Shown here piece after piece: positions 7,557-27,949 of a stretch of DNA of 64,000 nt. The stretch lies in contig DATBAI010000013.1 of NCBI GenBank assembly GCA_036271595.1, forward strand, positions 7,154 through 71,153. The letters run 5' to 3'. Below the pieces are notes generated by a model that was not told where the DNA came from, searched no databases, and saw only the letters and a list, made by a program, of their open reading frames with translations. The translations under genes were made by a program, and so were the position numbers. Origin of the DNA: Usitatibacter sp. (GTDB lineage Bacteria > Pseudomonadota > Gammaproteobacteria > Burkholderiales > Usitatibacteraceae). The first letter of the stretch is position 1. Each line of letters opens with the position of its first letter.

Positions 7557-8486
7557 TCAGGCGGCCCGGATGCCCGGGCTGTCACCCGCCTGCGTCGCGG
7601 CGAGGCGCTGCTTCGCGAACTTCACGAAGCCCTCGACCAGGCGGGAGTGGAACCGCTCCTTCGGATACACGACGGCGAGCTGGCGCACCAGCGGCGGCGC
7701 GAGCGCCACCTCGACCAGCTCTCCCAGGCGCAGCTCCTTGGCGACGGTGGCTCGCGACATGATGGCGAAGCCCAGGCCGGTCGCGACCAGCCGCTTGAGG
7801 GCTTCGGGGCTGCTCGCTTCCATTACGACCTGCAGGGCCTCGGGCGCCACGCCCGCCTCGTGCAGGTAGTGATCCACCACCTCGCGCGTCCCGGAGCCCA
7901 GCTCGCGGCTGATGTACGCATGCTCCGTGAGCGTCGGGGCCGACACGCTCGGCGCCCGGGCCAGCGCATGGCTGGGTGCGCAGACGACGCGCAGCTCGTC
8001 GTCGCAGCAGAAGTCGTTCACCAGCGAGGGCAGGTGCGAGTAGCCCTCGATGAAACCCAGGTCGAGGCTGCGCTCGGCCACGCGCGCCTGCACCACTTCC
8101 GAATTGGCGACGAAGAGCCGCGGCACCACCGCGGGATGGCGCGCCTTGAACTCTCCCAGCACCTGCGGCAACAGGAATTCGGCGATCGTGGTGCTCGCCC
8201 CGATGAGGAGCGGTCCCGATTCGACCCCGCTCATCTCCTTCAGGCGCGCATCGAGCTCCCCGGAGAGCGCGAGGATGCGCTCGGCATAGTCGAAGGCCAG
8301 GACGCCCGCCGGGGTGAGGACGATGCGGCCCTGCGCGCGGTCGAAGAGGCGCAGGTCGAACTGCTCTTCGAGCTGGCGAACCTGGAAGGTCACCGCCGGC
8401 TGCGTCATGAAGAGCGCTTCCGCAGCCTTGGTGAAGGAGAGGTGCTTGGCGACTGCATGGAAGACACGAAGCCGACGGTCGGCCAT
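7557..8486 (-). CDS. LysR-family transcriptional regulator (CysL-like)
   Basis: N-terminal HTH MADRRLRVF..SFTKAAEALFMTQPAVTFQVRQLE; GASTTIAE; RELGSGTR; divergent from msmA. Confidence 0.92.
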   Translation of the reverse strand: MADRRLRVFHAVAKHLSFTKAAEALFMTQPAVTFQVRQLEEQFDLRLFDRAQGRIVLTPAGVLAFDYAERILALSGELDARLKEMSGVESGPLLIGASTTIAEFLLPQVLGEFKARHPAVVPRLFVANSEVVQARVAERSLDLGFIEGYSHLPSLVNDFCCDDELRVVCAPSHALARAPSVSAPTLTEHAYISRELGSGTREVVDHYLHEAGVAPEALQVVMEASSPEALKRLVATGLGFAIMSRATVAKELRLGELVEVALAPPLVRQLAVVYPKERFHSRLVEGFVKFAKQRLAATQAGDSPGIRAA

Positions 8487-8787
8487 GTTCGACGCATTCT
8501 CGCGGTACGGGGCAGGAGTCCCCTCGGATCGAATATTATCGCGAAGGGCGGTCGCCTGCCCCGCACGGCGCGAGCGCCACCACGGCCGGCTTGCGGGCAA
8601 CAGGCTGGCCATCCTCGGGGCGTTTCATTTGGGGCGCCCGGAACCCGCGACTTTTCGAAACGAAACGTCCGGTGGCGGCTCGGCGTTCAGACCGACGCAG
8701 AAGTCTTTTCAATTGCCCCATGAGCGCCATACACTGGCCACAGACGCCAGCCGCCATGGCGGATTGCAGGAAATAAGGAGATATCGA

Positions 8788-10005
8788 ATGCCCAGGTCAG
8801 GAGCCGAGTGGAGCGCCCCACCGAAGTTTCCGGCGACGCACTACGTCGATTCGCGCATCTACAGCGACCCCGGTATTTTCGAGGAGGAGCTGGACAAGCT
8901 CTTCCGTCCCGCGTGGATCATCGCCTGCCACGAATCCGAGATCCCGAACGCGTTCGACTACCGCCTCTTCAATCACCCGGCGGGCGTGCCGCTCATCATC
9001 GTGCGCGGCGACGACCTGAAGGTGCGCGCGTTCTACAACATCTGCCCCCACCGCGGCAACACCATCCTCTACGACCCGGCCGGCAACGCGAAGCGCATGA
9101 CCTGCATCTTCCACCAATGGTCGTTCGACGTGCGCGGCAACTGCGTCGACATCTCGCGGGCCGAGCAGGGCTACCAGGATCGTTTCTGCAAGGCCGACGC
9201 GGGGCTGCGCGAGGTCAAATGCGAGATGGCGTTCGGCGGATTCGCGTGGGTGAACCTGGACGACGCGAGCGTGACGCTGAAGGAGTTCATCGGCCCCTCG
9301 CTGGACATCCTCTCGCCCTACATGGTCGAACCGATGGAGGTATTCCACTTCAACCGCGCCGTCGTCGACACCAACTTCAAGCTGTGGCACGACACGAATA
9401 GCGAGTTCTATCACGACTATGTGCACTACTTCAATCGCATCACCGGCATGATGCAGCCCGGCTACTTCGAGCGCAGGTACACGGGCTTCCCGAACGGCCA
9501 CGCGACGGTCGGCTCGATGCAAATCCAGTACGACAAGTACGAGGGCTCGAAGGAACGCGCGGTCGGCTGGCCCGGGCTTACGCCCGGTGGGTGGTACATG
9601 GTCGACCTCTTCCCGGGGATGACGTACAACCTGCGCACCTCGGTGCTTCGCATCGACACCGCGATCCCGTTGGGGCCCAACAAGGTCGCGATCGAGTTTC
9701 GCGGGCTGGGGTTGAAGAGCGACACGCCCCAGCAACGCGCGCAACGCATCTTCGACCACAACACGATCTGGGGCCCGTTCGGCCGCAACCTGCACGAGGA
9801 CCTGCTCGCGGTCCACGGCCAGGGGCGCGCCATGCGCGAGCGCACCGACAGCCGCTGGGTGATCCACGGGCGCGAGGAGAACAACACCATCCATGACGAG
9901 GTGGGAATGCGCCACTTCTATGCCGAGTGGACCCGGCGGATGGGACGCCCGTCCTATGCCCCGATGAGCGAGAACCCGCCGAACCCGGCGCGCGCGGTGG
10001 CGTGA
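8788..10005 (+). CDS. msmA: Rieske oxygenase alpha subunit, methanesulfonate monooxygenase-like
   Basis: RBS AAGGAG; CPH-x17-CIFH Rieske motif; EFYHDYVH and HEDLL mononuclear-Fe ligands; operon context. Confidence 0.8.
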   Translation: MPRSGAEWSAPPKFPATHYVDSRIYSDPGIFEEELDKLFRPAWIIACHESEIPNAFDYRLFNHPAGVPLIIVRGDDLKVRAFYNICPHRGNTILYDPAGNAKRMTCIFHQWSFDVRGNCVDISRAEQGYQDRFCKADAGLREVKCEMAFGGFAWVNLDDASVTLKEFIGPSLDILSPYMVEPMEVFHFNRAVVDTNFKLWHDTNSEFYHDYVHYFNRITGMMQPGYFERRYTGFPNGHATVGSMQIQYDKYEGSKERAVGWPGLTPGGWYMVDLFPGMTYNLRTSVLRIDTAIPLGPNKVAIEFRGLGLKSDTPQQRAQRIFDHNTIWGPFGRNLHEDLLAVHGQGRAMRERTDSRWVIHGREENNTIHDEVGMRHFYAEWTRRMGRPSYAPMSENPPNPARAVA

Positions 10006-10469
10006 GCGAGGCGATGGAACAACGACATCAGATCGAAGAGCTGGTCTACCGCTCGTGCCTTGCCCTCGACGACCAGGATTTCAAGGCCTTCCTGGAGCTG
10101 TGCGATCCCGGGTTTCGCTACACGGTGACGGCGTACAGCCCGGAGATCCGCAAGGAGATGACCTGGCTGGACCACGACAAGGCGGGCATGGAGACCCTCT
10201 TCACGCAACTGCCGCGGCACAACAGCGACCACTCGCCGCTCACGCGCCACGCGACCGTGTACACGGTGAAGGTCGACGGCGGCGAGGCGGAGGTGGTGTC
10301 GGCGCTGCAGGTGTTCCGCACCACCCTCGACGGCGGCACGACCGAGCTCTATACCGTTGCTCGCCTGGTCGACACCGTGAAGCTCGATGGCGCCGCTCCC
10401 AGGCTCGTGCGTCGCCACGTGCGGATGGGCACCCGCGAGCTCGGCTTCGGCACGCACATCCCGTTTTGA
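10002..10469 (+). CDS. msmB: Oxygenase beta subunit, MsmB-like
   Basis: LVYRSCL.LD..DF..FL.LC, AYSPEIRKEM.WLDHD; GTG overlaps the msmA stop (alternative ATG at 10014). Confidence 0.8.
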   Translation: MSEAMEQRHQIEELVYRSCLALDDQDFKAFLELCDPGFRYTVTAYSPEIRKEMTWLDHDKAGMETLFTQLPRHNSDHSPLTRHATVYTVKVDGGEAEVVSALQVFRTTLDGGTTELYTVARLVDTVKLDGAAPRLVRRHVRMGTRELGFGTHIPF

Positions 10470-10483
10470 GCGATCCACGCTGC

Positions 10484-11512
10484 ATGCGCATCCAGGTGAA
10501 CGCCCGCAACCGCGCCTTCCAGTTCGATGCGCTCCCGGGCGAGAAGATCCTCTATGCGGGCCTCAGGGCGCAGGCCGCGCTCCCCTACGAGTGCGCCACG
10601 GGCACGTGTGGAACCTGCAAGGCGCGCCTGGTCGAGGGACGCATCGAGGATGCGTGGCCCGAGGCCCCGGGGCGCAAGTTCCTGAAGGCCGATCGCGGCG
10701 AATTCCTCATGTGCCAGTGCTCGGCCCAGGGCGACCTCGCGATCGAGGTCGCGAGCTTCGTTCATCCGGCCGATCCCGGCGAGTCCCGGGTGGGGCATGT
10801 CGGCGGCTCGGTGCGCTCGGTGCGGCCCCTCACGCACGACGTGAGCGCGGTCGAGGTTACGCTGGACGCGCCGTGCGAATTCGAGGCCGGGCAGTTCATG
10901 GCGGTGAGCGCGCCAGGGGTCGTGGGCATGCGCGGCTACTCGATGGTGAACTTCGAGCAGCCGGCGCGGCGCCTGGACTTCGTGGTGAAGAGGAAGCCCG
11001 GCGGAGGTTTCTCCGAGTGGCTCTTCTCCGGCAACGCGGTTGGCGCGCGCCTGGAAATGTTCGGTCCGCTCGGCAAGGCGACCTTCCATCCGTCGGCGGG
11101 CAAGAACATCCTGTGCATCGCCGGCGGCAGCGGCATCGCCGGGATGATGTCGATCCTCGGGCGCGCCGCGGCCGCGGGCTGCATGGAGCGGCACGACTTC
11201 CGCGTCTTCTTCGGCATTCGAACCTTGCGCGACGCGTTCTTCCTTCAGGAGCTCTCCGCGTTCGCGAAGGCGCAGGTCACGATCGCGTTGTCCGAGGAAG
11301 ACGTTCCCGAGCTCGTCTCGAAACAATGGCCCGGCCTGCGCTTCGAGCGCGGCCTGGTGCACGAGGCCGCGAAGCGGGCCATGGCCGGGCGATACCAGGA
11401 CGTGCGCGCTTACCTCGCGGGCCCCCCACCGGCGGTGGAGGCGTCCATCCGCGTGCTGCTGCTGGAGGCGAAGCTCACCGCCGATTGCATCCGTTACGAC
11501 AAGTTCAGCTGA
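10484..11512 (+). CDS. msmD: Oxygenase reductase (plant-type 2Fe-2S + FAD/NAD domains), MsmD-like
   Basis: CATGTCGTC...C cluster motif, RGYSM FAD motif, GGSGIAG NAD motif, YLAGPP, terminal DKFS. Confidence 0.8.
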   Translation: MRIQVNARNRAFQFDALPGEKILYAGLRAQAALPYECATGTCGTCKARLVEGRIEDAWPEAPGRKFLKADRGEFLMCQCSAQGDLAIEVASFVHPADPGESRVGHVGGSVRSVRPLTHDVSAVEVTLDAPCEFEAGQFMAVSAPGVVGMRGYSMVNFEQPARRLDFVVKRKPGGGFSEWLFSGNAVGARLEMFGPLGKATFHPSAGKNILCIAGGSGIAGMMSILGRAAAAGCMERHDFRVFFGIRTLRDAFFLQELSAFAKAQVTIALSEEDVPELVSKQWPGLRFERGLVHEAAKRAMAGRYQDVRAYLAGPPPAVEASIRVLLLEAKLTADCIRYDKFS

Positions 11513-11515
11513 GCG

Positions 11516-12244
11516 ATGGCCAGACGAATGATCTGCCGAACCAGCGAGGTGCCGGCCAACGGGTTGAAGGAGTGCGAGCTGGATGGGGGCATGAAGCTGC
11601 TCGTGGCCAATTCCGGGAGCGAATACTTCGCCGTGCAGGCCACGTGCCCGCACCAGGAGGTTGCGCTCTGCGAAGGGATGTACGACGGCAACGTCCTCAC
11701 CTGCCACCAGCACTTGTGGCAATGGGACATCCGCACCGGCGCGGCCATGGGCATGGCGGAGGCGCCGCTCGAGCGCTACGACGTGAGCGTCGAGGGCGAT
11801 GCGATCTACGTCGGCGCGCAGGGCGCGCTCAACGTGGGCGAGCTCTTCAGCGGCATCGGGGCCGCGACGCTCGAGGCGCTGGCACGGCTCGCGCGTCGCG
11901 AGGAGTTCGCGGCGGGGCAGGCGCTCTACGGGCCCGGCGACCGCGCCGACGATTTCTTCGTGCTGGAGTCGGGCCGCGTCGAATTCCGGCTCGGCCGCGG
12001 AGAGAACGCCAACCCCGCGGGGTTCATGCTGAAGAAGGGCGAGGTCTTCGGATGGGCGGCGCTGGTAGACGGGCATTCGCAACGCATCGCGAGCGCGCGC
12101 GCCCTCGAGGATTCGGCGCTGCTGCGGGTGAACGGCAAGCAGGCCCTGCAGCTCCTCGAATCGGATCCGGCCTCGGGATTCATCGTGATGCGCCGGCTCT
12201 CGGCGCTGATCGCACGCTTCCTCGCCGACGCGGGGGCGAAGTGA
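11516..12244 (+). CDS. msmC: Rieske ferredoxin (MsmC-like) fused to a C-terminal cNMP-binding-fold domain
   Basis: CPH-x16-CHQH in the first ~105 aa; then GDRADDFFVLESGRV..GEVFGWAAL..RIASA; no HTH. Confidence 0.75.
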   Translation: MARRMICRTSEVPANGLKECELDGGMKLLVANSGSEYFAVQATCPHQEVALCEGMYDGNVLTCHQHLWQWDIRTGAAMGMAEAPLERYDVSVEGDAIYVGAQGALNVGELFSGIGAATLEALARLARREEFAAGQALYGPGDRADDFFVLESGRVEFRLGRGENANPAGFMLKKGEVFGWAALVDGHSQRIASARALEDSALLRVNGKQALQLLESDPASGFIVMRRLSALIARFLADAGAK

Positions 12245-12304
12245 TGGGAATGTCGATGTGAAGTTCCATTCGTGACTCAAAACGATAACGGAGGAGGTCG
12301 GACC

Positions 12305-13453
12305 ATGAACAAGGCGTTCAAGTGCTTCGCTGCCGCGGCGATGGTTTCAATGACGATTGCCGCGCCGGTAGCTTTCGCAAAGGACTACGGCAAGGTCGGC
12401 GAGCCGGTGCACCTCGTGATCGGCTACCAGCCCTACTACACGCAGGCCTGGTCGGCGGTGATCCAGAAGGAGATGAAGCCGTGGGAAAAATACCTTCCCA
12501 AGGGCTCCACCGTCGACTGGGAGGTGGGCCTCCAGGGCGCCATCGTCGGTAACGCGATGCTCGCCGACAAGAACGACATCGGCTACATGGGCGACATGCC
12601 CACCATCGTCGCGATCAGCAAGCGCGAAATCCGCGAGCTGCGCATGGTGGCGGTCCTGGGCCTCGCCAACGACCAGTGCAGCGTCTTCCTTTCGCGTAAC
12701 GAGGCGCCGGACTTCAAGACGCCCGAAGAGGCGATCAAGTGGTGGAACGGCAAGCGAATCGCCGTCGCGAAGGGCAGCTGCACCGACCGCAGCGCCCAGG
12801 AGGCGATGCGCAAGTACAACATCAAGCCGGAGCAATACCTGAACCAGAACATCGAGGTGCAGACCTCGAACTTCAAGGCGGGCCGCCTCGACGGCTCGAT
12901 CGTGTGGGAGCCCACCGCCTCGAAGATCGTGATGGAAGGCATCGCCAAGCGCATCGCCGACACCAAGGTGATCGGCAAGCTGGACGGCGGCTTCATGGCC
13001 ATGCAGGAGGAGCTGATCAAGCAGCGCCCCGACGTGGTGAAGGCCTGGCTCGAGGCCGAGCTCGACGCGGACCTCTATTGGTCCAAGCCCGAGAACTACA
13101 TGAGTGTCGTCGAGATGGCCCACAAGAACGCCCAGGGCTTCAGCAAGGAAGAGCTCTGGATGGCGATGGCGGGCAAGTATCCCAAGAGCATGGGCGGGGG
13201 CGACGTGCGCAACATCATGTACTACGGCATCAACGACGATGTGCGCAACATGATGAAGGACGAAGTCACGTTCCTGCACGAGATCAAGATCCTGCCGATG
13301 GCCGAGCTGCCGGCCGACCTCGTCGATTCGAGCTGGACCGACGAGATCCTCAAGCGCCGTGGCCTCAAGGTACCGCTCGCCAAGATCGTGGCGCAGGACC
13401 CGTCCAAGTATCCCGGCGGGAAGATCCAGCTCCCGGCGTCGTGGCGGGAGTGA
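12305..13453 (+). CDS. msmE: ABC substrate-binding protein, MsmE/SsuA-like
   Basis: RBS GGAGGAGG, signal peptide, IGYQPYYT, GLQGAIV.NAMLA, GYMGDMP. Confidence 0.75.
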   Translation: MNKAFKCFAAAAMVSMTIAAPVAFAKDYGKVGEPVHLVIGYQPYYTQAWSAVIQKEMKPWEKYLPKGSTVDWEVGLQGAIVGNAMLADKNDIGYMGDMPTIVAISKREIRELRMVAVLGLANDQCSVFLSRNEAPDFKTPEEAIKWWNGKRIAVAKGSCTDRSAQEAMRKYNIKPEQYLNQNIEVQTSNFKAGRLDGSIVWEPTASKIVMEGIAKRIADTKVIGKLDGGFMAMQEELIKQRPDVVKAWLEAELDADLYWSKPENYMSVVEMAHKNAQGFSKEELWMAMAGKYPKSMGGGDVRNIMYYGINDDVRNMMKDEVTFLHEIKILPMAELPADLVDSSWTDEILKRRGLKVPLAKIVAQDPSKYPGGKIQLPASWRE

Positions 13454-13489: not shown

Positions 13490-14365
13490 ATGGCTAGCAC
13501 TCGCATGACTTCCGGCGGGGAGATCGGTGCATGGGAAATGTTCCTGTACCGATTCTCCAAGTGGCTGCGCAGCCCCAGGCCCTACCTGATGGTCCTGGGG
13601 TTCGTGCTGTTCTTCGGCGCGTGGTTCCTGCTCTCGGAGGTGTTCAAGGTGTGGCGCTTCGCGAGCCTGCCCGGCCCGCGCCAGGTGCTGCACGAATGGT
13701 TCAGCCGCAATCCGGTGTACGGCATGTCGCTGTACACGCCGGATTACTACATGCACATCGGGATGAGCGTGCGGCGGGTGCTCTATGCGTTCGTGATCTC
13801 GACCTGCCTGGGCGTGCCGTTCGGCCTCTTCCTCGGCTGGTCGAAGAACTTCCGCGACTTCACCTTCCCGGTGTTCGAGACGCTGCGGCCGATCCCGGTG
13901 CTCGCGTGGGTGCCGCTCGCCATCGTGATGTTCCGCGCCGACGAGACGCCGGTGATCTTCCTCACCACGCTGGCGTCGTTCTACGCGACGGCCCTCAACA
14001 CCATGCTGGGCGTGCAATCGATCGACGAGTCCTACCCGCGCGCCGCCGCCTGCCTGGGCGCGAGCCGGTGGCAGATCTTCCGCCATGTCATCGTCCCCGG
14101 GGCGCTGCCGTTCATCTTCACCGGGTTGCAGATTTCCGTGGGTGTGGCCTGGTTCTCGCTGGTGGCCGCGGAGATGGTGTCGGGCGAATACGGCCTGGGC
14201 TACCTCATCAACAGCTCCTACGTGAACGTCCAGTACCAGGTGATCATCATCGGCATGATCTCGGTGGGCATCGTGGGCTATGCGAGCAGCGCGCTGGTGC
14301 GCCTCGCGGGCGACTACCTGATGCAGTGGCGGGTGCGCGAGCTGGCGCTGGGAGCCGGGCGATGA
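13490..14365 (+). CDS. msmF: ABC permease (nitrate/sulfonate family)
   Basis: LRPIPVLAWVP and EAA-type loop RAAACLGASRWQIFRHV. Confidence 0.75.
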   Translation: MASTRMTSGGEIGAWEMFLYRFSKWLRSPRPYLMVLGFVLFFGAWFLLSEVFKVWRFASLPGPRQVLHEWFSRNPVYGMSLYTPDYYMHIGMSVRRVLYAFVISTCLGVPFGLFLGWSKNFRDFTFPVFETLRPIPVLAWVPLAIVMFRADETPVIFLTTLASFYATALNTMLGVQSIDESYPRAAACLGASRWQIFRHVIVPGALPFIFTGLQISVGVAWFSLVAAEMVSGEYGLGYLINSSYVNVQYQVIIIGMISVGIVGYASSALVRLAGDYLMQWRVRELALGAGR

Positions 14366-15228
14366 ACGCACCGGACCTGGTCGCGGCCTCGCCTTCGGCG
14401 CAGCACGCGGCCAAGGGCGCGATCCGAATCCAGAACGTCGACAAGCGGTACTACGCGCGCGAGGGCCAGGTGCAGGCGGTCTCCGACTGCACCCTGGACA
14501 TCCGCGCCGGCGAGATCTGCATGATCGTGGGGCCGTCGGGCTGCGGCAAGACCACGCTGCTGAACGCCATCGCGGGGTTCCACGACATCACCGGCGGCGC
14601 GATCTACCTCGACGGGCAGATGCTGTGCGGGCCCGGCAAGCCCAAGGCCGAACCGGGTCCCGACCGGGTCGTGGTGTTCCAGAACGGGGCGCTTTTCCCG
14701 TGGAAGACCAACCTGGAGAACGTGGCCTTCGGCCCCGTGGTCCAGGGACGGTTGAGGAAGAAGCAGGCGGCCGAGAAGGCGCGCGGCATGATGGCGGACG
14801 CGGGGCTCGCGGGCGTCGAGCACAACTATCCCGGCGAGATCTCCTCGGGCATGCGCCGGCGCGTGGAGATCGTGCGCGCGCTGATGAACGACCCGAAGGT
14901 GCTGCTGCTGGACGAGCCGTTCCGCGCGCTCGACTCGCTCACCAAGTCGGTGATGCACGAGGCGCTGCTCGAGATCTACTACAAGAACAAGGTCACGACG
15001 TTCTTCATCACCCACGACCTCGAGGAAGCGATTTTCCTGGGCCATCGCGTCGTCATCATGACGACGCGGCCTTGCCGCCCCAAGTTGATCCTCGAGGTGG
15101 ATATCCCGCATCCGCGCAACTACAGCGTGCTCACCAGCCCGCGGTTTCGCGAGCTGATGGAGGAGACGGTGAACGCGGTGCACGAAGAGGCGGTCAAGGC
15201 CTTCGAGGCCGGCGAGAAGGAGATGTGA
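14362..15228 (+). CDS. msmG: ABC ATPase 1
   Basis: GPSGCGKTT, deviant signature ISSGM, LLLDEPF, ITHD. Confidence 0.8.
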   Translation: MNAPDLVAASPSAQHAAKGAIRIQNVDKRYYAREGQVQAVSDCTLDIRAGEICMIVGPSGCGKTTLLNAIAGFHDITGGAIYLDGQMLCGPGKPKAEPGPDRVVVFQNGALFPWKTNLENVAFGPVVQGRLRKKQAAEKARGMMADAGLAGVEHNYPGEISSGMRRRVEIVRALMNDPKVLLLDEPFRALDSLTKSVMHEALLEIYYKNKVTTFFITHDLEEAIFLGHRVVIMTTRPCRPKLILEVDIPHPRNYSVLTSPRFRELMEETVNAVHEEAVKAFEAGEKEM

Positions 15229-16064
15229 TGAGCGCCGCCATCGCCACCGCGGTTCGCCCGATCGCGCGCCCGCGCCAATCCATCTTCCGCAACCGCGTCG
15301 TGCGGGCGGTGATCTCCATCGCGTCGTTCGTCATCCTTTGGGAGATCGGGTCGCGGCTCAAGCTGCCATGGGTGGGCGACGTGCCCGCGCCCACCGTCGT
15401 GATGAAGGCGTGGGTGCCGCTGCTGCACGACCCGGGATACTGGTACAGCTGGTACCAGAGCTCGCGGCGCGTGCTGACCGGCTTCGTCGCGGCCATGCTG
15501 GTCGGCATCCCGCTCGGCCTCGCGATGGCGACGAGCCGCGTCTTTCGCGACATCACGTTCCCGGTCTTCGAGATCCTGCGGCCGGTGCCGCCGCTCGCAT
15601 GGGTGCCGGCGGCGATCATCTTCTGGCCGACGCAGGAGCTCTCCATCGGCTTCGTGATCTTCCTCGGGGCCATCTTCACCATCATGCTGAACGTGATCGG
15701 CGGCGCACGCTCCATCGACGTGCGCTTCTTCCAGGCGGCCCGCTCCATGGGCTCTAGCAACTGGGACATCTTCCGGCGCATCGTCCTGCCGGGCGTGCTG
15801 CCCTCGATCGTGGTCGGCTGCGAGGTCGGCATCGGCATCACCTGGAACGTGGTCGTGGCCGCGGAGATGATCTCGGGGGGCGGGGGCGCGATCCAGTCGA
15901 GCGCCGGCGGCGGCCTCGGATTCTTCATCTGGAGCTCGTACATCGGCGGCTCCTATCCGCTGATCGTCGTGGGCATGATCAGCATCGGCATCGCGGGCTA
16001 CATCTCCAGCGCCATCATCCGGCGACTGGGCATGCTGGTGATGCCGTGGGTGAGGGTGCGATGA
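15228..16064 (+). CDS. msmH: ABC permease 2
   Basis: LRPVPPLAWVP, QAARSMGSS; ATG overlaps the preceding stop. Confidence 0.75.
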   Translation: MSAAIATAVRPIARPRQSIFRNRVVRAVISIASFVILWEIGSRLKLPWVGDVPAPTVVMKAWVPLLHDPGYWYSWYQSSRRVLTGFVAAMLVGIPLGLAMATSRVFRDITFPVFEILRPVPPLAWVPAAIIFWPTQELSIGFVIFLGAIFTIMLNVIGGARSIDVRFFQAARSMGSSNWDIFRRIVLPGVLPSIVVGCEVGIGITWNVVVAAEMISGGGGAIQSSAGGGLGFFIWSSYIGGSYPLIVVGMISIGIAGYISSAIIRRLGMLVMPWVRVR

Positions 16065-16945
16065 GCGTCGCCCCGGCTCCCGGCGGCAAGCTCGCCGCCT
16101 CCATCAAGCCGAGCGAGATGCGCATCGCCAACGTCTCCAAGGGCTATGGCGATGCGCGCTTCCGTACCGAGGTCGTGCGCGACTGCTCGTTCGTCATCGA
16201 GCGAAGCAAGCTCACGGTGATGATCGGTCCGTCGGGATGCGGCAAGAGCACGCTCATCCGGCTGCTGGCGGGATTCGAGAAGCCCGACAGCGGCAGCATC
16301 ACCCTGAACGGCGTGCCGGTGACGGGGCCGGGCCGCGACCGCCTGGTGCTCTTCCAAGAGTCCGCGCTCTTCCCGTGGATGAACACCTGGGACAACACCA
16401 TGTACGGGCCGCGGGCGCGCGGAGAGGCCACCGCCGAGAACCGCGACATGGCGGAGTTCCTGCTGAACAAGGTCGGCCTGGGACAGTTCCGCAAGAAGTA
16501 CCCGACGCAGCTCTCGGGGGGGATGCAGCGGCGCGCCGAGCTCGCGCGCGCCATGATCAACAACCCCGCCGCGATGATCCTGGACGAGCCGTTCCGCGGC
16601 CTCGACGCCATGACCAAGGAGCTCATGTGGGAGTACTACTCGCGCCTCTTCGAGGAGACGCGGCGCACCAATTTCTTCGTGACCACGGACATCGACGAGG
16701 CGATCTTCCTCGCCGACCGGCTGCTGATCATGTCGAACATTCCCTGCCAGGTGCGCGCGGTGCTCGACATCGACATTCCGCGGCCCCGGCGCCTCGTCGC
16801 CATGGTGGAGAACGACCGCGCCAACGAGATCAAGATGAGCGCGCTCTCGATCCTGCACGAGGAGGCGATGAAGTCTTTCTCCCGGGGGAGCAAGGCGGCG
16901 GCGGACTTCGTCGACGCCTACTCCCGGCGGGTCGCCAAGGGCTGA
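16061..16945 (+). CDS. ABC ATPase 2 (H-loop His replaced by Thr)
   Basis: GPSGCGKST, LSGGM, MILDEPF, VTTD. Confidence 0.85.
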   Translation: MSVAPAPGGKLAASIKPSEMRIANVSKGYGDARFRTEVVRDCSFVIERSKLTVMIGPSGCGKSTLIRLLAGFEKPDSGSITLNGVPVTGPGRDRLVLFQESALFPWMNTWDNTMYGPRARGEATAENRDMAEFLLNKVGLGQFRKKYPTQLSGGMQRRAELARAMINNPAAMILDEPFRGLDAMTKELMWEYYSRLFEETRRTNFFVTTDIDEAIFLADRLLIMSNIPCQVRAVLDIDIPRPRRLVAMVENDRANEIKMSALSILHEEAMKSFSRGSKAAADFVDAYSRRVAKG

Positions 16946-17847: not shown

Positions 17848-18738
17848 CTAGCCGGGCAGGGGCGCCGCCCGCGGCCGAAGCCGCTCGCGATCGTAGAACG
17901 GGAGCTCGGCCACGCGTGCGCGCCGGTCACCCGCGCGCACCTCGCTGCCGATGACGGCCTCGGGCGCGACAAACCCCAGCGCCAACGCCTTTCCGAGAGT
18001 CGGCGACAAGCATTCGCTGGTGATCGCCGCAGGCGGAAGCTCGGCGCCTGGGCGGCCCTCGAGGATCTCGAGCCCCGCCAGCCGGCGGCGCAGTGCGAAA
18101 CGCGTACCGCCATCGACCAGCCGTTCGAGGCCGAGCTCACGGGGATTCGCCTCGCCGTCCACCTCGCGATCGAAGAGCACGTAACCCGCCTCGATGCGAA
18201 GGCTGTCCGCTGCAGCCCAGCCGCACTCGCGCAGCCCCTCGACGCGCCCGGCCTCGAGTAGCCGGCGCCTCAGCGCGTTTACCTCATCCGCGGGGACCAG
18301 CAACTCGTATCCCAGCTCGCCGCAGTAGCCGATGCGGGCCACGATGATTTCCTGCACCTCGGTGAAGCGGAAGTAACGCAGCGCCGCCACGGCGTCGCGG
18401 CCGATGAGGCGTGCCAGCACCGTGCCGCTCGCCGGCCCCTGCAGCGCGAGGATTGCGAGCTCGCCCGAACGGTCGCGCCCGCCGTAGGCCGCGCGCTTGC
18501 CCGCGAATAGCCAGTAGCGCCGCGGCCCGCGCCGCCACACCGTGGCGTCGATGCGCACCGCCCCATTCGGCGCGAGAAGGAGCGTGTAGGCGATCTGGCC
18601 GATTTCCAGCCCCGTCAGGTCGCGGCTCTGCAGCGCCTGCAGAGCCTCGGCATCGTCGAACTCGTAGTGCCCCATGAACGAAAAGTCGAAGAGGCCCACG
18701 CCTTCCCGCACGGCGAGATGCTCCTCGGCACTGCTCAA
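17848..18738 (-). CDS. Stand-alone, shortened GcvT-family (folate-binding aminomethyltransferase-like) protein
   Basis: EEHLAVREGVGLFDFSFMG, RIGYCGELGYEL, DSLRIEAGY; TTG start overlaps the tauE stop (start inferred). Confidence 0.75.
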   Translation of the reverse strand: MSSAEEHLAVREGVGLFDFSFMGHYEFDDAEALQALQSRDLTGLEIGQIAYTLLLAPNGAVRIDATVWRRGPRRYWLFAGKRAAYGGRDRSGELAILALQGPASGTVLARLIGRDAVAALRYFRFTEVQEIIVARIGYCGELGYELLVPADEVNALRRRLLEAGRVEGLRECGWAAADSLRIEAGYVLFDREVDGEANPRELGLERLVDGGTRFALRRRLAGLEILEGRPGAELPPAAITSECLSPTLGKALALGFVAPEAVIGSEVRAGDRRARVAELPFYDRERLRPRAAPLPG

Positions 18739-19484
18739 ATGGCGCGAACCAGCATGAAGAGCCCGACCACGATGCAAAGGCCCGCGGCCATGCGCCGCAG
18801 CACCACCATGCTCACCGCATGCGCGGCCCGGGTACCGAGCGCCACGCCGATGAGGGAGAGCGGCGCGACCCAGGCCGCGGTGAGGAAGTCGATCGAGCCG
18901 AACTGCAGGTTCCCGGCCGTACCCGACACGGCGACCACGATCTGCAGCACCTGGCTCGCGCCGATGGCTTCGAGCGGGACGAAGCCCAGCGCCATCATCA
19001 ACGGCACGGCGAACACGGGCCCGCCCGCGCCCGAAAGGCCCGAGCCGAAGCCGGCCGCCGCGCCGACGCTCGCGAGGAGCACCTGCTGCGCGGCGCCGCG
19101 GCCGGTTCGGTACACACCCTCGGCACGCCGCGACGGGAGCATCACGTAGAGTCCCGCGAAGACGATGATCGAGGCGATGATGAGGGTGAGCAACCGCGGC
19201 TCGACGTAGGAGTTCACCATCGCGCCGATGTAGCTGAAGATCACCGAGCCCACGCATATCGGCACCGTCAAGCGCCACTGGATCGAGCCGCGTACGTAGA
19301 AGAGCCACGTGCCGAGGACCCCGGTGAAGATGAACGTGAAGAGCGCGGTCGCGCTGGCGCGGTGGATGTCCATCCCGCCAAGGATCGCGAGCGCCGGGAT
19401 GGCCAGCACGCCGCCCACCCCGACCGAGCCGATGAAGAAGCCCACCACCGCGGCGACGACGGCGAGGAGCGCGGTCGCGGCCAT
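18735..19484 (-). CDS. TauE/SafE family sulfite exporter
   Basis: GSVGVGG.LAIP and GLSGAGG.VFAVP glycine motifs, about 8 TM helices. Confidence 0.85.
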   Translation of the reverse strand: MAATALLAVVAAVVGFFIGSVGVGGVLAIPALAILGGMDIHRASATALFTFIFTGVLGTWLFYVRGSIQWRLTVPICVGSVIFSYIGAMVNSYVEPRLLTLIIASIIVFAGLYVMLPSRRAEGVYRTGRGAAQQVLLASVGAAAGFGSGLSGAGGPVFAVPLMMALGFVPLEAIGASQVLQIVVAVSGTAGNLQFGSIDFLTAAWVAPLSLIGVALGTRAAHAVSMVVLRRMAAGLCIVVGLFMLVRAI

Positions 19485-19491
19485 CGCGTGC

Positions 19492-19944
19492 TCAGCCGGC
19501 GGCGAGGATCACGAGCTCGCTGGTGAGGAGCACCGCCAGCCTCTTCATGACGCCGAAGCCGAGGTCGGTGTCCTCCTCCATGAGCTGCGTGAGGGCGGCT
19601 CCGTTGATCGCGAGGACCTCGCATGCGGTGAGGCAATACGCGGTGGCGATGCGCCGCGTGTGCCCCTCGACCAGCGGCGCCCAACCGAAGACGTCGCCGC
19701 GCCGGATGATGTCGCCGGCCGCGGTATCGCGCTTGGACAGGCCGAGCGTGAACCTCACCATGCCGTCGGCGAGCACGTAGAAATTGTCGACCGCGTCACC
19801 TACCGTGTAGATGCGCGTGTCGGCCTCGAACGAGCGCGCCTGGGCAAGCGCGGCGATGTGCTCGAGCTGCGAAGCGTGCAGGCCCGAGAAGAACCGCGCC
19901 TGCGAGAGGATGGCGCGCGCGTCGAGGGAGCTGACGGAGCTCAA
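19492..19944 (-). CDS. Stand-alone cNMP-binding-fold protein (FGW variant)
   Basis: GDAVDNFYVLADGMV..GDVFGWAPL..RRIATA; TTG start overlaps the panB-like stop. Confidence 0.8.
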   Translation of the reverse strand: MSSVSSLDARAILSQARFFSGLHASQLEHIAALAQARSFEADTRIYTVGDAVDNFYVLADGMVRFTLGLSKRDTAAGDIIRRGDVFGWAPLVEGHTRRIATAYCLTACEVLAINGAALTQLMEEDTDLGFGVMKRLAVLLTSELVILAAG

Positions 19945-20846
19945 CCGGCGCTACCGGCCTTGCGCGGCTTCGCCATCAGCTGCTTGAACTTCGCAAGCTC
20001 ATCCTCCTTCATGAACACGGTGTGCTCCTTGCCGGGATAGGCGCGCGAGCGCACGTCGTCGCGGTAGTCGGACAGGCCCTTTTCCATGATCGGCACCAGG
20101 TCCACGTACATCTTCGAATGGCGCGGCGTGTGCGCCTCGTACAAATGGAAGAGGTCCGAGCCGATGATATGCACGCCGTGCGCGCGGTTGCCCGCGCCCA
20201 GGCTGATGACCGGGACCGGAAGCGTCTCGGCCAGGTGCTCGCAGACTTCGGACGTGGTCACCTCGCACAGGATCGAGAAGCAGCCGGCATCGACCATCGC
20301 CCAGGCGTCGTCCACCAGCTCCTTGGCGCGGTCCGCGGTCTTGCCCTGCGCGAAGAAGCCGCCCAGCTGCGCCATGCGCATCGGCGTGATGCCGATGTGG
20401 CCCTGCACGGGGATGCCCGCCTTCACGATCGCCTCCATGTACTTGGCATGGTGCTGGTTGCCCTCGCACTTCATCACTTCCGCGCCGCCCTGGGAGACGT
20501 ACTTCGCGGCATTGTCGACGGCTTGCTGTGCGGAAAGGTGGAAGCTCATGTACGGCATGTCGACCATGCGCAAGCCGTACTTCGAGCCGCGCTTCACGGC
20601 CTGGGCCATGAACATCACCTCCTCGAACGATACCGAGGTGGTGTTTTCGTGCCCGAAGAGCACCATGCCGCCGGTGTCCGAGACGCACAGGATGTCGACC
20701 CCGACGCGGTCCGAGATGATCGCGGTCTCGTAGTCGTAGACCGCGAGCTGCACGATCGGGTCGCCCTTCTTCATTTTCTCGACAAGCTGGGGAATCGTGA
20801 CTTTCTTGCGTGCCGGCGCGGCGGCCGCGGGTTTCTGCTCGGACAT
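19941..20846 (-). CDS. panB: Divergent ketopantoate hydroxymethyltransferase (PanB) homolog
   Basis: YDY, VSDTGGM (vs VGDSLGM), DMPYMSF, KCEG, GHIGITP, SILCE, SLGAG. Confidence 0.7.
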   Translation of the reverse strand: MSEQKPAAAAPARKKVTIPQLVEKMKKGDPIVQLAVYDYETAIISDRVGVDILCVSDTGGMVLFGHENTTSVSFEEVMFMAQAVKRGSKYGLRMVDMPYMSFHLSAQQAVDNAAKYVSQGGAEVMKCEGNQHHAKYMEAIVKAGIPVQGHIGITPMRMAQLGGFFAQGKTADRAKELVDDAWAMVDAGCFSILCEVTTSEVCEHLAETLPVPVISLGAGNRAHGVHIIGSDLFHLYEAHTPRHSKMYVDLVPIMEKGLSDYRDDVRSRAYPGKEHTVFMKEDELAKFKQLMAKPRKAGSAG

Positions 20847-20995: not shown

Positions 20996-22366
20996 TCATC
21001 CGGCGCTTCGGCGGACGCGCTTCAGCCCCCATTGGCGCCGCCGGGTCCAGAGCGCCTTGCGCCCGATACCGAGCATGCGCGCGAGCTCGGCTTCGCTGCG
21101 CGTGTCCTGGAACCGCTCGACCACCTCGCGGATGTACTCCTCGATGGCGAGGGGCGGCGTGTCGCCTTGCGCGATGGGCGCGGCCCGCACCATGGGCAGC
21201 GCGGGGGCGACCTCCGCGAGGTCGCGGCCGGTGAGCACGTCGCCCTCCGCGAGGATCACGGCGCGCTCGACCAGGTGCTCGAGCTCGCGCACGTTGCCCG
21301 GCCACGAATGGTGCTCGAGGAAGGAGGTGAACTCCGGGTCGAAGCCGCGCACGCTCTTGCCGAGCTTGCGCGAGTAGCGCTCGGCAAAGTGGCGCGCGAG
21401 CGTCAGCACATCGGCGCCGCGATCACGCAGCGGCGGCAGCGTGATCGAGATCACGTTGAGGCTGTAGTAGAGCTCCTGCCGGAATGCGCCCTTCGCGACC
21501 GCGCCCTCGAGGTCCCAGTGCGTGGCCGCGACGAAGCGCACGTCGGCGGCGTAGGTGCGGCCTTCGCCGAGCGAGCGGGCCACCTTGTCCTGCAACACCC
21601 GCAGCAGCTTCGCCTGGAGGGCGGCGGAGAGCTCGGTGATCTCGTCCAGGTAGAGGGTGCCGCCGTGCGCCTCGCGAATGAGCCCCTCGCGCGCGTCCGG
21701 GCCGCCCTGGCGCCCGAAAAGCTCCGCCTCGAGCAGGGCGGGGGCGAGCGCGCCGCACTTGACCGGCACGAAGGGACCGGCCGCGCGCGGCCCGCGCGCA
21801 TGCAGCGCGTGCGCGAGGAGCTCCTTGCCCGTGCCGTACTCGCCGGAGAGCAGCACGTTGGCTTCGGACTTCGCGGCCTTGCGCATGCGCTCCAGCGCCT
21901 TCTGCATCCCGGGGCTCTCGCCCAGGATCGGCCGGCTCGCGTAGGCGCTCTGGAGCGTTCGCCGCAGCGCCGCGTTCTCGCGGCCCATGCGCCGTTCCTT
22001 CAGCGCGCGCTCGACCGAATGCAGCAGCTCTTCGTTGTCGAACGGCTTGATGATGTAGTCCACGGCGCCCGCGCGCAGCGCCGCTACCGCGCTCTCCAGC
22101 GAGGAGTAGCTGGTCATCATGATGATCGGGAGCGTGCGGTCCTTCTCGTGGATGAGGCGCACCGCGTCCAGTCCGGTGCCGTCGGGAAGCTTCAGGTCCG
22201 TGATCACGACGTCGTGGTCCCCGGCCGCGATGCGCCGCAGGCCTTCCTTCACCGAGGCGGCGGAATCGACCCGGTAGCCCTCGCTCGAGAGGAGGAGCGC
22301 CACCACCTCGGAGACGCCCGGGTCGTCCTCGATCACGAAGATGCGCTCGCTGCGGGCGGTGGCCAT
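20996..22366 (-). CDS. NtrC/CbrB-like response regulator (REC-AAA+-HTH) lacking the GAFTGA loop
   Basis: IEDD/TD/KPF receiver residues; GEYGTGKE; ELFGRQGGPDAREG; LYLDEI; WPGNVRELEH; C-terminal HTH. Confidence 0.85.
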   Translation of the reverse strand: MATARSERIFVIEDDPGVSEVVALLLSSEGYRVDSAASVKEGLRRIAAGDHDVVITDLKLPDGTGLDAVRLIHEKDRTLPIIMMTSYSSLESAVAALRAGAVDYIIKPFDNEELLHSVERALKERRMGRENAALRRTLQSAYASRPILGESPGMQKALERMRKAAKSEANVLLSGEYGTGKELLAHALHARGPRAAGPFVPVKCGALAPALLEAELFGRQGGPDAREGLIREAHGGTLYLDEITELSAALQAKLLRVLQDKVARSLGEGRTYAADVRFVAATHWDLEGAVAKGAFRQELYYSLNVISITLPPLRDRGADVLTLARHFAERYSRKLGKSVRGFDPEFTSFLEHHSWPGNVRELEHLVERAVILAEGDVLTGRDLAEVAPALPMVRAAPIAQGDTPPLAIEEYIREVVERFQDTRSEAELARMLGIGRKALWTRRRQWGLKRVRRSAG

Positions 22367-22368
22367 CG

Positions 22369-23274
22369 CTACGCGGCTGCGGGGAGGATCAGCTCCATGC
22401 AGGTGCCGCCCTCCGGATGGTTGCTGGCGCTGAGCGAGCCGCCCAGCTCGTGCACGATTTCGTTGCAGATCGCGAGCCCCAGCCCCGTGCCCTCTCCGGG
22501 CGCCTTGGTGGTGAAGAACGGCTCGAAGATGCGCTCCAGGTCGTGCCCGGGTATCCCGGGGCCGGTGTCGCGCACCCGCACCCGCACGCGCCCGGCGGCG
22601 TCGCGCCCGGTGTCGATCTCGATGTCGCCGCGGCCCTGCATCGCCTGCGCGGCGTTCAGCATGATGTTGAAGAGCACCTGCTGCAGCTCGCCGGGGCGCG
22701 CCGGCGTCACGGCATCGGGCAAGCCGCGGCATGCGAACCGCACTTCCGCGCCCCAGCGGTTGTGGCGCAGCAGCCCGAGGGCCTCGCGCACGGCGGCGTC
22801 CACCGACTGCGGCTGCGGCGCATCGCCCGTCAACCGCGAGAAATCGCCCAACTTGCGGGTGATCGCGAGCACCCGCACGAGGTTACCCGCGATGGAGCTC
22901 AGGCCCTTCTCGACGGTCTCGGGCGTGACGCCGCGGGGCGACTGCAGGATCTGCACCATCGAGTGGATCGCGGCGAGCGGATTGGAGACCTCGTGGCAGA
23001 CGCCCGCGAGCATGAAGCCCAGGGAGGCGAGGCGCTGCATCTGCGGGTCGGGCGTGGTCCCGGGAAGGACGAACACGCAACGGCCCGCCGGAAGGTCGGC
23101 CACATGGGCCCCGGGGAGGCGTGCGGGATCCGAACGCCCGGCCAGGGCGCGCATCGCGGCATTCATGTGCAGCACTTTGCCATCGGTGCCGAGGATCGCC
23201 GCGGCGATCGGCATCGCGTCGAGCAGCGCCCGCAACTCGCCGGAAACCTCGGGTCGCGCGCCGGTGCGAATCAC
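22369..23274 (-). CDS. Cytoplasmic sensor histidine kinase (short PAS-like + HisKA + HATPase)
   Basis: HEVSNPL H-box, NAAQA N-box, DTGPG, FFTTK, GTGLGL; no TM segment. Confidence 0.85.
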   Translation of the reverse strand: MIRTGARPEVSGELRALLDAMPIAAAILGTDGKVLHMNAAMRALAGRSDPARLPGAHVADLPAGRCVFVLPGTTPDPQMQRLASLGFMLAGVCHEVSNPLAAIHSMVQILQSPRGVTPETVEKGLSSIAGNLVRVLAITRKLGDFSRLTGDAPQPQSVDAAVREALGLLRHNRWGAEVRFACRGLPDAVTPARPGELQQVLFNIMLNAAQAMQGRGDIEIDTGRDAAGRVRVRVRDTGPGIPGHDLERIFEPFFTTKAPGEGTGLGLAICNEIVHELGGSLSASNHPEGGTCMELILPAAA

Positions 23275-23275
23275 G

Positions 23276-24481
23276 TCACGCGGCCCCGGGCGCCGCCCGC
23301 GCGATCGCCCGTTCGTCGATCGGCAAACACATCGCGCATGCGATCACCGACAGCGCGATCGACATGATCCACACCCACAGGTACGAGCCGGTCGCATCGA
23401 ATACCGCGCCGCCGGCCCAAGCGCCCGCGAACGCTCCCAGCTGGTGCCCGAGGAACGCGATCGAGAAGAGCGTCGAGAGGTATTTCAGCCCGAAGATCTG
23501 TCCCACCAGCGAGTTGGTGAGCGGCACGGTGCCCAGCCAGGTGAATCCCATCACCGCGGCGAAGAGGTAGATGCTGCCGAGGGTGATGGGCAGGCCGACG
23601 AAGAGCGCGATCGCCACGGCACGGATGGCGTAGACCCAGAAGAGCAGCCACTTGCGGCTGTAGCGTGCGCCGAGCGCGCCGGCGGCGAAGGAACCGACGA
23701 TGTTGAAGAAGCCGATGGTCGCGAGCGCCGCCATCGCATGCTGCGCGCCGAGGCCGCGGTCCACGAGGTAGGCCGGGAGGTGGACCATGATGAAGATCGT
23801 CTGGAATCCGCAAACGAGGAACGAGCCCGTGAGGAGCCAGAAGCCGCCGTGGCTCGCGGCTTCGGACAGGGCGCCGCCGATCGACTGCGTGCTTTCGTTC
23901 GCCGCCTCGTTTCGTCCCGACAGGGCGCCTCCGAGCGGGATCATCACGGCCGCGAGCGCGGCGAGCGTCGCGAGCGCCGGGAGCCAGCCCCACGCGTTGA
24001 TCAGCGCCTGTCCCGTCGGAAGCATCGCGAACTGCCCGAATGAGCCGGTGGCGCCGGCGAGGCCCACCGCCACCGAGCGGCGCTCGGGCGGGAATGCCCG
24101 CGCCACCACCGCGAGCACGACACCGAAGCCGGTGCCCGACAGCCCAAGGCCTACCAGCAGCCCGGCCGACAGGTCGAAGAGGAGCGCGTTCGTGGCATGG
24201 GCCATCGCGTAGAGGCCGATGGCATAGAGGATGGCGCCCGCGACGATGACGCGCCCGGCGCCCTTTCGGTCGGCGATCGCACCCGCGAACGGCATGGCGA
24301 GGCCCCACACCAAGTTCTGCAGCGCGATCGCGAAGGAGAACGTCTCGCGCCCCCAGCCGAGCTCGGCCGACATCGGGCGCAGGAAGAGTCCGAAGCTCTG
24401 GCGAATGCCGAGCGCGAGCATCAGGACGAGCCCGGCGCAGGCGAGGACTACCGTGGGCGTGCGCCAGCGACCGTGATCCAG
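23276..24481 (-). CDS. MFS transporter (possible CTG start)
   Basis: GIRQSFGLF, 12 predicted TM helices; GGGAGG RBS 5-6 nt before an in-frame CTG giving 401 aa. Confidence 0.85.
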   Translation of the reverse strand: MDHGRWRTPTVVLACAGLVLMLALGIRQSFGLFLRPMSAELGWGRETFSFAIALQNLVWGLAMPFAGAIADRKGAGRVIVAGAILYAIGLYAMAHATNALLFDLSAGLLVGLGLSGTGFGVVLAVVARAFPPERRSVAVGLAGATGSFGQFAMLPTGQALINAWGWLPALATLAALAAVMIPLGGALSGRNEAANESTQSIGGALSEAASHGGFWLLTGSFLVCGFQTIFIMVHLPAYLVDRGLGAQHAMAALATIGFFNIVGSFAAGALGARYSRKWLLFWVYAIRAVAIALFVGLPITLGSIYLFAAVMGFTWLGTVPLTNSLVGQIFGLKYLSTLFSIAFLGHQLGAFAGAWAGGAVFDATGSYLWVWIMSIALSVIACAMCLPIDERAIARAAPGAA

Positions 24482-24512
24482 GAACGCCTCCCCATGGCCG
24501 AATTGGACAAGC

Positions 24513-24671
24513 CTACGGCTTTTTCGGGGTCTTGTACTCGTCTTCCTTGTGGAGCGGCTTCCAGACGGTCTCGTAACCGACAAATCCCTTTTCGTTCGGA
24601 GGCTTCTGCCGCGTCGTGTAGTAAGGCGTATGGCCGTCGGGGACCTTGGTGACGGGTTTTTGCTCGCTCAT
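24513..24671 (-). CDS. Small 52-aa hypothetical protein (not in the ORF track)
   Basis: GGAG RBS + ATG; MSEQKPVTKVPDGHTPYYTTRQKPPNEKGFVGYETVWKPLHKEDEYKTPKKP; fills the gap in the operon. Confidence 0.75.
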   Translation of the reverse strand: MSEQKPVTKVPDGHTPYYTTRQKPPNEKGFVGYETVWKPLHKEDEYKTPKKP

Positions 24672-27927: not shown

Positions 27928-27949
27928 AGTCGGCTCCTTGGGCTGTGTT

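Follow-up and report, generated by a model that had tools for sequence, protein, structure and literature searches.

The gene at positions 11516–12244 (+) of the 64,000-nt stretch of Usitatibacter sp. DNA analyzed here (contig DATBAI010000013.1; the whole stretch is referred to below as the window) encodes a 242-aa, MsmC-like protein in which a Rieske [2Fe-2S] ferredoxin is fused to a domain of the cyclic nucleotide monophosphate (cNMP)-binding fold. That domain belongs to a cNMP-fold subfamily that we name the FGW type, which carries a Trp in place of the ribose-binding Glu and retains the anion-binding Arg. Judging from sequence comparisons, the FGW domain is a distinct module dedicated to the pathway in which this ferredoxin takes part. 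The reading that we favor, at a probability of roughly one half, is that it acts as a pathway ligand sensor that gates the ferredoxin, with a putative small anion rather than a cyclic nucleotide as its ligand. We rank this reading above those in which the domain is a tethering module, a receptor for cAMP or cGMP, or an artefact.

The boundaries and identities of the two domains are supported by the open reading frame (ORF), by Pfam, by homologs, and by an AlphaFold2 model searched with Foldseek. The start codon, an ATG, lies 3 nt past the stop codon of the reductase gene. Residues 1–105 (11516–11830, +) form the Rieske domain (PF00355 match to residues 5–80, E = 1e-12), with the cluster ligands C44, H46, C63, and H66, encoded at 11645–11713, arranged as C44-P-H46-x16-C63-H-Q-H66; this spacing falls within the expected CxH-x15-17-CxxH pattern, and all four ligands are invariant in our alignment of 81 fusion sequences. 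Residues 106–242 (11831–12244, +) form the cNMP-fold domain (PF00027, cNMP_binding, match to residues 129–217, E = 1.8e-15, 57.1 bits against a cut-off of 27.5 bits). Pfam found no helix-turn-helix (HTH) family in the fusion protein, which thus lacks the C-terminal HTH characteristic of CRP/FNR regulators; in the model, a long C-terminal helix spans residues 218–236 and the protein stops 6 residues beyond it. The equivalent of the phosphate-binding cassette (PBC), identified by conservation, begins at G175 and is encoded at 12038–12097 (+), with the sequence GEVFGWAALVDGHSQRIASARA. Here, W180 occupies the position of the ribose-binding Glu of PKA and CAP, and R190, the Arg that binds phosphate in canonical domains, is retained with CAP-like spacing. 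Residues G175, E176, F178, G179, W180, A182, R190, I191, and A192 are invariant across the 81 fusion proteins, so that the Glu that contacts the ribose 2′-OH is uniformly absent and the PBC Arg uniformly present. The original prediction had read from the sequence a ferredoxin with a CPH-x16-CHQH motif, a cNMP fold without an HTH, and a cassette with FGW for FGE and its Arg intact, all of which these analyses bear out.

The AlphaFold2 model, built from 63 homologs, contains two folded domains (mean predicted local distance difference test [pLDDT] score 84.7; predicted template modeling [pTM] score 0.60) joined by a very short linker of approximately 3–5 residues, with a mean pLDDT of approximately 60 over residues 101–110. 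Foldseek searches against the PDB match the N-terminal half to the ferredoxins T4moC, TodB, BphA3, and CarAc (TMt 0.85–0.89, root-mean-square deviation 1.2–1.6 Å; identity up to 38%, to T4moC). These ferredoxins, including BphF, share the fold and the CPH-x16-CHxH motif of the fusion, but they are single-domain proteins of approximately 105–110 aa, and no solved one carries a sensor domain. The C-terminal half matches the cNMP folds of GlxR, CRP, and 3mdp, and no solved chain among the Foldseek PDB matches spans both halves. By sequence, the closest solved relative is the cAMP-binding domain of Bd1971. The FGW domain has in common with CRP/GlxR, PKA/PKG, and Bd1971 a β-roll and PBC helix, a CAP-like PBC length, and the conserved PBC Arg. 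Unlike them, it has an invariant Trp in place of the Glu, it has no HTH or known output domain, and its partner is a ferredoxin or an ATP-binding cassette (ABC) permease; across sequence and profile searches, a Trp at the PBC Glu position is absent from all of the aligned best PDB matches.

The fusion recurs far beyond chance. Relatives are encoded in 155 species-representative genomes, of which we analyzed the best 80 as loci. These 80 align over essentially the whole fusion at 54–82% identity, and uninterrupted fusion ORFs of 241–243 aa are present in 79 of the 81 sequences, as judged from locus translations. At least 120 full-length homologs at 72–89% identity all contain both Pfam domains. 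The hosts are Betaproteobacteria (Burkholderiales in the broad sense), with Usitatibacter the closest, and include the cultured strains Thiobacillus thioparus DSM 505, T. denitrificans DSM 12475, and Glaciimonas immobilis DSM 23240, as well as metagenome-assembled genomes of Herminiimonas, Methylibium, and Caldimonas. In an architecture survey of 1.84 billion cluster representatives, the full-length FGW fusion amounts to one 50%-identity cluster plus fragments. The same survey recovered a separate fusion of a Rieske ferredoxin to a cNMP domain (P0386, a 272-aa metagenomic protein on a 1.3-kb contig, L113), in which the linker is longer and the cassette is of the canonical FGE...RTA type; since this fusion is independent, the Rieske-plus-cNMP architecture arose at least twice. 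Three further candidates (P0283, P0309, and P0371) were rejected as cNMP fusions and are double-Rieske proteins.

The fusion gene occupies the same place in a gene order that is conserved between the window and each of the 80 related loci: oxygenase alpha subunit, beta subunit, reductase, fusion, SsuA-like binding protein, and permease. No plain ferredoxin gene was found within the cluster, and elsewhere the genome has just one Rieske-ferredoxin-like match, at 31% identity and on a different contig. On this genomic context, the fusion is the Rieske ferredoxin of this three-component oxygenase, and apparently its only one.

The FGW domain also occurs outside the ferredoxin. In 56 of the 80 related loci, the MsmF-like ABC permease is immediately preceded, in frame, by an FGW domain. 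We read out the corresponding ORFs in nine sampled loci and obtained uninterrupted FGW–permease ORFs of 440–480 aa in eight of them, among which are the three cultured strains named above; the ninth (L058) overran the end of its locus. Examples are found at L066:10164–11486 (T. thioparus DSM 505), L064:10190–11512, and L072:10222–11607. The two proteins on which Pfam was run, from T. thioparus and Glaciimonas, both contain cNMP_binding and BPD_transp_1 domains. A third, free-standing form is present in the window itself at 19492–19944 (−), where a 150-aa paralog (GDVFGWAPLVEGHTRRIATA; supported by Pfam, homologs, and the domain tree) shares 42% identity with the fused domain and carries the signature GDVFGW...RRIATA. 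Its gene lies between those for a PanB-like protein and a TauE-type exporter; it has at least 120 close homologs, and these form a widespread clade of their own, with proteins typically ending in ...FAAG.

A tree of 166 FGW domains resolves the three forms as monophyletic clades, with the ferredoxin-fused and permease-fused copies as sisters (support 0.999). The three subfamilies are only approximately 30–45% identical overall; the positions conserved in all three (F111, Y138, G141, G153, G175, G179, W180, R190, A192, and G221) include the structural glycines of the β-roll together with the Trp, Arg, and Ala of the PBC. Among them, Y138, G175, G179, W180, R190, and A192 do not vary in any of the three, and more than 140 sequences drawn from the three subfamilies all have a Trp at the Glu position. 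Other conserved surface positions are specific to one subfamily or another (F157 vs. H, R161 vs. P, F170 vs. K, and R226 vs. S).

The genomic distribution of the domain is similarly restricted. Among 25 genomes in which we counted copies genome-wide, 22 contain two to four FGW copies, and nearly all of these copies lie no more than approximately 12 kb from the ferredoxin gene. Of 401 Pseudomonadota genomes sampled evenly, only that of the window and G349 contain FGW domains, and both have the short-spacer oxygenase operon described below. G349, which belongs to the same order and is complete at 5.4 Mb, holds all three FGW forms in one cluster (L111/L112, G349:C1:326000–362000), with the free-standing copy divergent from TauE. 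We also considered whether the permease-fused and free-standing forms strictly replace one another, and rejected the idea: both are present in L011, L012, L052, L058, L077, and L078, and some genomes have neither.

Because the FGW domain is confined to one catabolic cluster and yet is carried by, or placed beside, three different effectors, a pathway-metabolite sensor is the simplest reading. The original prediction had proposed a regulatory sensor linked to the pathway from the ferredoxin alone, and that idea is strengthened by the copies on the permease and beside TauE and by their confinement to this neighborhood. Under such a model, the conserved W180/R190 pocket of every FGW copy would accommodate one and the same small ligand from the cytoplasm, most likely not cAMP or cGMP but an anion of the pathway, for example sulfite or the substrate sulfonate. 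The Trp would remove the ribose contact and narrow the pocket, and the Arg of the PBC helix would suit an oxyanion, by analogy with NtcA and 2-oxoglutarate. Binding could then cause a rearrangement or dimerization through the C-terminal helix (residues 218–236) that alters electron shuttling from the reductase to the oxygenase; alternatively, the domain could re-orient against the Rieske domain across the 3–5-residue linker. In relatives with the permease fusion, ligand binding would also change the speed of the importer, and control at the protein level would thereby keep uptake in step with NADH-consuming oxygenation and sulfite disposal. Sulfite would offer the simplest logic, inhibiting import and electron supply while promoting export. 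A sulfonate substrate as ligand could instead provide trans-inhibition of import together with substrate-dependent release of electrons, and so prevent uncoupled NADH oxidation, and the nearby AprBA genes suggest AMP or adenosine 5′-phosphosulfate (APS) as further possibilities. More tentatively, and with less confidence than we attach to gating itself, the FGW domain may represent a new ligand class of the cNMP fold, sensing sulfite, short sulfonates, or another pathway metabolite on behalf of a ferredoxin, a permease, and a partner of TauE.

Several observations weigh against this reading. The permease of the window and those of its closest relatives have no FGW domain, and 3 of the 25 genomes contain the ferredoxin copy only, so co-regulation of import is not universal. 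The identity of the ligand is a guess, and the invariant Trp may be a structural plug that renders the domain independent of any ligand. The modeled orientation of the two domains is unreliable (pTM 0.60, linker pLDDT approximately 60), and the geometry of gating cannot be read from it. The genome also encodes at least six class III nucleotidyl cyclases, which, together with the ability of Epac to bind cAMP without a PBC Glu, leaves room for cAMP or cGMP as the ligand. Finally, for the clade of oxygenases to which this one belongs, neither the substrate nor growth on methanesulfonate (MSA) is proven (PMC4433239).

The strongest competing explanation, which we nevertheless consider unlikely, is that the FGW domain is an interaction or dimerization module that works without a ligand, tethering the electron-transfer chain and oxygenase to the importer or exporter as a metabolon. 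In this view, the CRP-like C-helix would homodimerize the ferredoxin or pair it with permease-fused or free-standing copies. Such a role would fit the resemblance of the long terminal helix to that of dimeric CRP-family proteins, the presence of at least two FGW copies in one gene cluster in most genomes, the sister relationship of the ferredoxin-fused and permease-fused copies, which could reflect co-evolved partners, and the existence of the subfamily-specific surface positions. However, the residues common to the three clades are positions of the ligand pocket (the PBC Trp, Arg, and Ala) and not of the helix interface; moreover, the permease of the window and of its closest relatives is unfused, and 3 of 25 genomes have a single FGW copy.

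Less likely again is that, even with a Trp in place of the Glu, the FGW domain is a genuine receptor for cAMP or cGMP, which would place the pathway under post-translational control by a second messenger of carbon or energy status. The strong cNMP_binding score of 57 bits, the PBC Arg retained at a spacing identical to that of CAP, the cAMP-binding domain of Bd1971 as nearest solved sequence relative, the cyclases of the genome, and the precedent of Epac all point in this direction. Against it stand the invariance of the Trp in more than 140 sequences, with no Trp at that position in any of the aligned best PDB matches, and the confinement of FGW domains to one catabolic cluster, whereas cNMP effectors are usually spread over the genome. 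Canonical FGE...R domains coexist with the FGW type in this genome (for example, that of the kinase at 31160–32458), suggesting that selection has kept the two types apart. An argument that the domain could not bind cNMPs for want of cyclases had to be abandoned in view of the at least six class III enzymes encoded. The interpretation in the original prediction is supported in part: the substitution itself is real and invariant, but given Epac and those cyclases, loss of the Glu does not by itself rule out cNMP binding.

That the fusion is instead an artefact, in which loss of a stop codon, or a frameshift, in assembly or annotation merged a ferredoxin gene with a small cNMP gene, is refuted to our satisfaction: although the existence of free-standing 150-aa FGW proteins makes a two-gene ancestor plausible, the single uninterrupted ORF recurs across independent genomes, including finished genomes of cultured strains, and in at least 120 further metagenomic proteins of the same fused form, none of the 80 loci has the two separate genes that the original prediction had named as the outcome counting against a true fusion, and a linker of approximately 3–5 residues leaves no space between the domains for a stop codon, ribosome-binding site, and start codon.

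The favored sensor-and-gating reading has partial parallels in known systems. NtcA binds 2-oxoglutarate at its CRP-type pocket Arg, CooA holds haem, and CprK binds chlorophenolacetate, all of them cases of one fold reused for other small ligands; those proteins, unlike the FGW fusions, are DNA-binding transcription factors. The fusion of the FGW domain to metabolic and transport proteins implies, in its case, post-translational control. For the permease-fused copy, the closest analogue is found among the regulatory domains of NrtC, MetN, and ModC. The C-terminal regulatory domain of NrtC gives allosteric control of import in importers of the NitT/TauT family; like it, MetN C2, and ModC, the FGW domain would be a cytoplasmic ligand-binding domain on an importer subunit, of the kind associated with trans-inhibition. 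Those domains are borne on the ATPase and have other folds, whereas the FGW domain is a cNMP fold on the N-terminus of the permease that is shared with a ferredoxin. With respect to the ferredoxin, a further comparison is the ThnA3/ThnY pair of Sphingomonas macrogolitabida, in which the Rieske ferredoxin of a Rieske oxygenase likewise carries regulatory information; unlike the FGW fusion, ThnA3 signals by its redox state to a separate protein, acts on transcription, and has no fused ligand-binding domain (PMC3771892).

The surrounding operon is, by sequence, a close homologous variant of the msm (methanesulfonate monooxygenase) system. Like the canonical MsmC of Methylosulfonomonas methylovora, Filomicrobium, and SAR116-type organisms, the protein is a Rieske [2Fe-2S] ferredoxin encoded beside MsmA/B-like subunits and a Fer2-FAD-NAD reductase, and the accessory genes are common to both systems (LysR, TauE, GcvT-like, PanB-like, formate–tetrahydrofolate ligase [FTHFS], and an SsuA-type ABC importer). 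We assign the operon to the msm family as a variant because these C1 and sulfite accessory genes are common to both, while the spacer, the gene order, and the extra domain differ. Canonical MsmC is a single-domain protein of 125 aa and 16 kDa, whereas the window protein has 242 aa, its 137 extra residues forming the cNMP-fold domain. The canonical gene order is A-B-C-D, whereas that of the window and of all related loci is A-B-D-C. Canonical MsmA has a 26-residue Rieske spacer, regarded as the hallmark of methanesulfonate monooxygenase, whereas the spacer of the alpha subunit here is 17 residues in the window and in 69/69 relatives.

In proven MSA degraders, the spacer is 26 residues long, the genes follow the order msmABCD, and MsmC is plain, with a Filomicrobium msmC of 378 nt; the same study, by Henriques and De Marco, places Methylibium, Methyloversatilis, Ralstonia, and Thiobacillus in a short-spacer, “MsmA-annotated” group (PMC4433239). 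Notes on the x17 spacer appear also in PMC5068391. A canonical system within our own set, in a genome of 44% GC (G076), has a 26-spacer MsmA, the order A-B-C-D, and a single-domain MsmC of 125 aa that is approximately 43% identical to the Rieske part of the window protein; its neighbors encode a PanB-like protein (68% identical to the window copy), FTHFS, and LysR, and no FGW-type domain was found anywhere in that genome. The window alpha subunit is 56% identical to this canonical MsmA. The statements in the original prediction of a plain canonical MsmC and of an msmABCD order different from that seen here are both correct. We note that the C-terminus of the G076 MsmC (L124:10142–10519, −) is a strongly acidic tail, EEEDELGDDDFFS, at the position taken by the cNMP domain in the FGW fusion. 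From its sequence, the window oxygenase falls within a short-spacer MsmA-like clade, and is a putative methanesulfonate or C1-sulfonate monooxygenase. One further x17 alpha subunit, 42% identical and encoded in G027, was set aside as a different oxygenase, with no adjacent ferredoxin or reductase within the 4.2-kb locus examined.

Within the window, the cluster opens with a divergent LysR-type regulator (7557–8612, −; Pfam), the true start of which is probably downstream of 8612. The operon itself comprises the MsmA-like Rieske oxygenase alpha subunit (8788–10005, +), which has the short-spacer motif CPH-x17-CIFH; the MsmB-like beta subunit (10014–10469, +); and the MsmD-like Fer2-FAD-NAD reductase (10484–11512, +), located ahead of the ferredoxin gene. 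All three are assigned by Pfam, as is the MsmE-like periplasmic binding protein of the SsuA/NMT1 type (12272–13453, +) that follows the fusion. The MsmF-like ABC permease (13490–14365, +), identified by locus comparison, is the window copy without a cNMP domain. Beyond it, ORFs for a first importer ATPase, a second permease, and a second ATPase lie at approximately 14362–15228, 15225–16064, and 16061–16945 (+). The importer thus has two different ATPases and two different permeases in a heterodimeric ABC arrangement (14362–16945), unlike the simple description of msmEFGH.

On the opposite strand, a second operon, of the order panB-like/FGW/tauE/gcvT-like, begins with a PanB-like hydroxymethyltransferase (19941–20846, −; assigned by homology) and continues through the free-standing FGW gene. 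Directly downstream of the latter lies a TauE/SafE-type sulfite exporter (18735–19484, −; homology to the Filomicrobium cluster), followed by a GcvT-like folate-binding protein (17848–18738, −). FTHFS and FolD are also encoded in the window near the cluster. Approximately 6 kb from the sulfite-export operon, at 25580–28086 (−), are genes for an AprA-like protein (FAD_binding_2 + Succ_DH_flav_C) and AprB (APS-reductase_C + Fer4), which suggests that sulfite is oxidized via APS in this organism; after AprBA, the region 20996–24583 encodes a major facilitator superfamily carrier, a histidine kinase, and a sigma54-type response regulator. The Ser/Thr protein kinase at 31160–32458 (+), outside the sulfonate cluster, carries its cNMP_binding domain at the C-terminus.

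In the literature searched in full text, we found no paper on the fusion, on the FGW subfamily, or on the fused permease, nor one on any cNMP-fold domain borne by the permease of a NitT/TauT-family importer. The components (a Rieske ferredoxin, a cNMP fold, and an msm-type operon) are of known kinds, and what is new is their combination rather than a category of protein. In public databases, these proteins are labeled “cyclic nucleotide-binding domain-containing protein” or, in the case of many free-standing FGW proteins, “toluene monooxygenase system ferredoxin subunit” (JGI). The latter, having no Rieske domain, are mislabeled, in what looks like an annotation transfer from the fusion; we flag this misannotation as systematic. 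The FGW fusion can also serve as a sharp sequence marker of the short-spacer “MsmA-like” clade, and so bears on an old question of the sulfur cycle, whether the widespread short-spacer operons of Betaproteobacteria oxidize methanesulfonate.

The usual view of Rieske oxygenases is that they are controlled at the level of transcription, and an obligatory sensor domain on the ferredoxin would constitute a new control point. By throttling electron supply, such a sensor would guard against uncoupled NADH oxidation, reactive oxygen, and an overload of sulfite. The occurrence of the FGW domain on an ABC permease provides a second, independent read-out of the ligand and makes the hypothesis directly testable in cultured strains, namely T. 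thioparus DSM 505, T. denitrificans DSM 12475, and G. immobilis DSM 23240. A sensor-tagged ferredoxin additionally offers a design idea for biocatalysis. Should the FGW domain prove to be a new ligand class of the cNMP fold, as in the more tentative reading above, the fusion would be the first Rieske ferredoxin under allosteric gating, and a single ligand would coordinate uptake of the substrate, electron supply to the oxygenase, and export of the toxic product.

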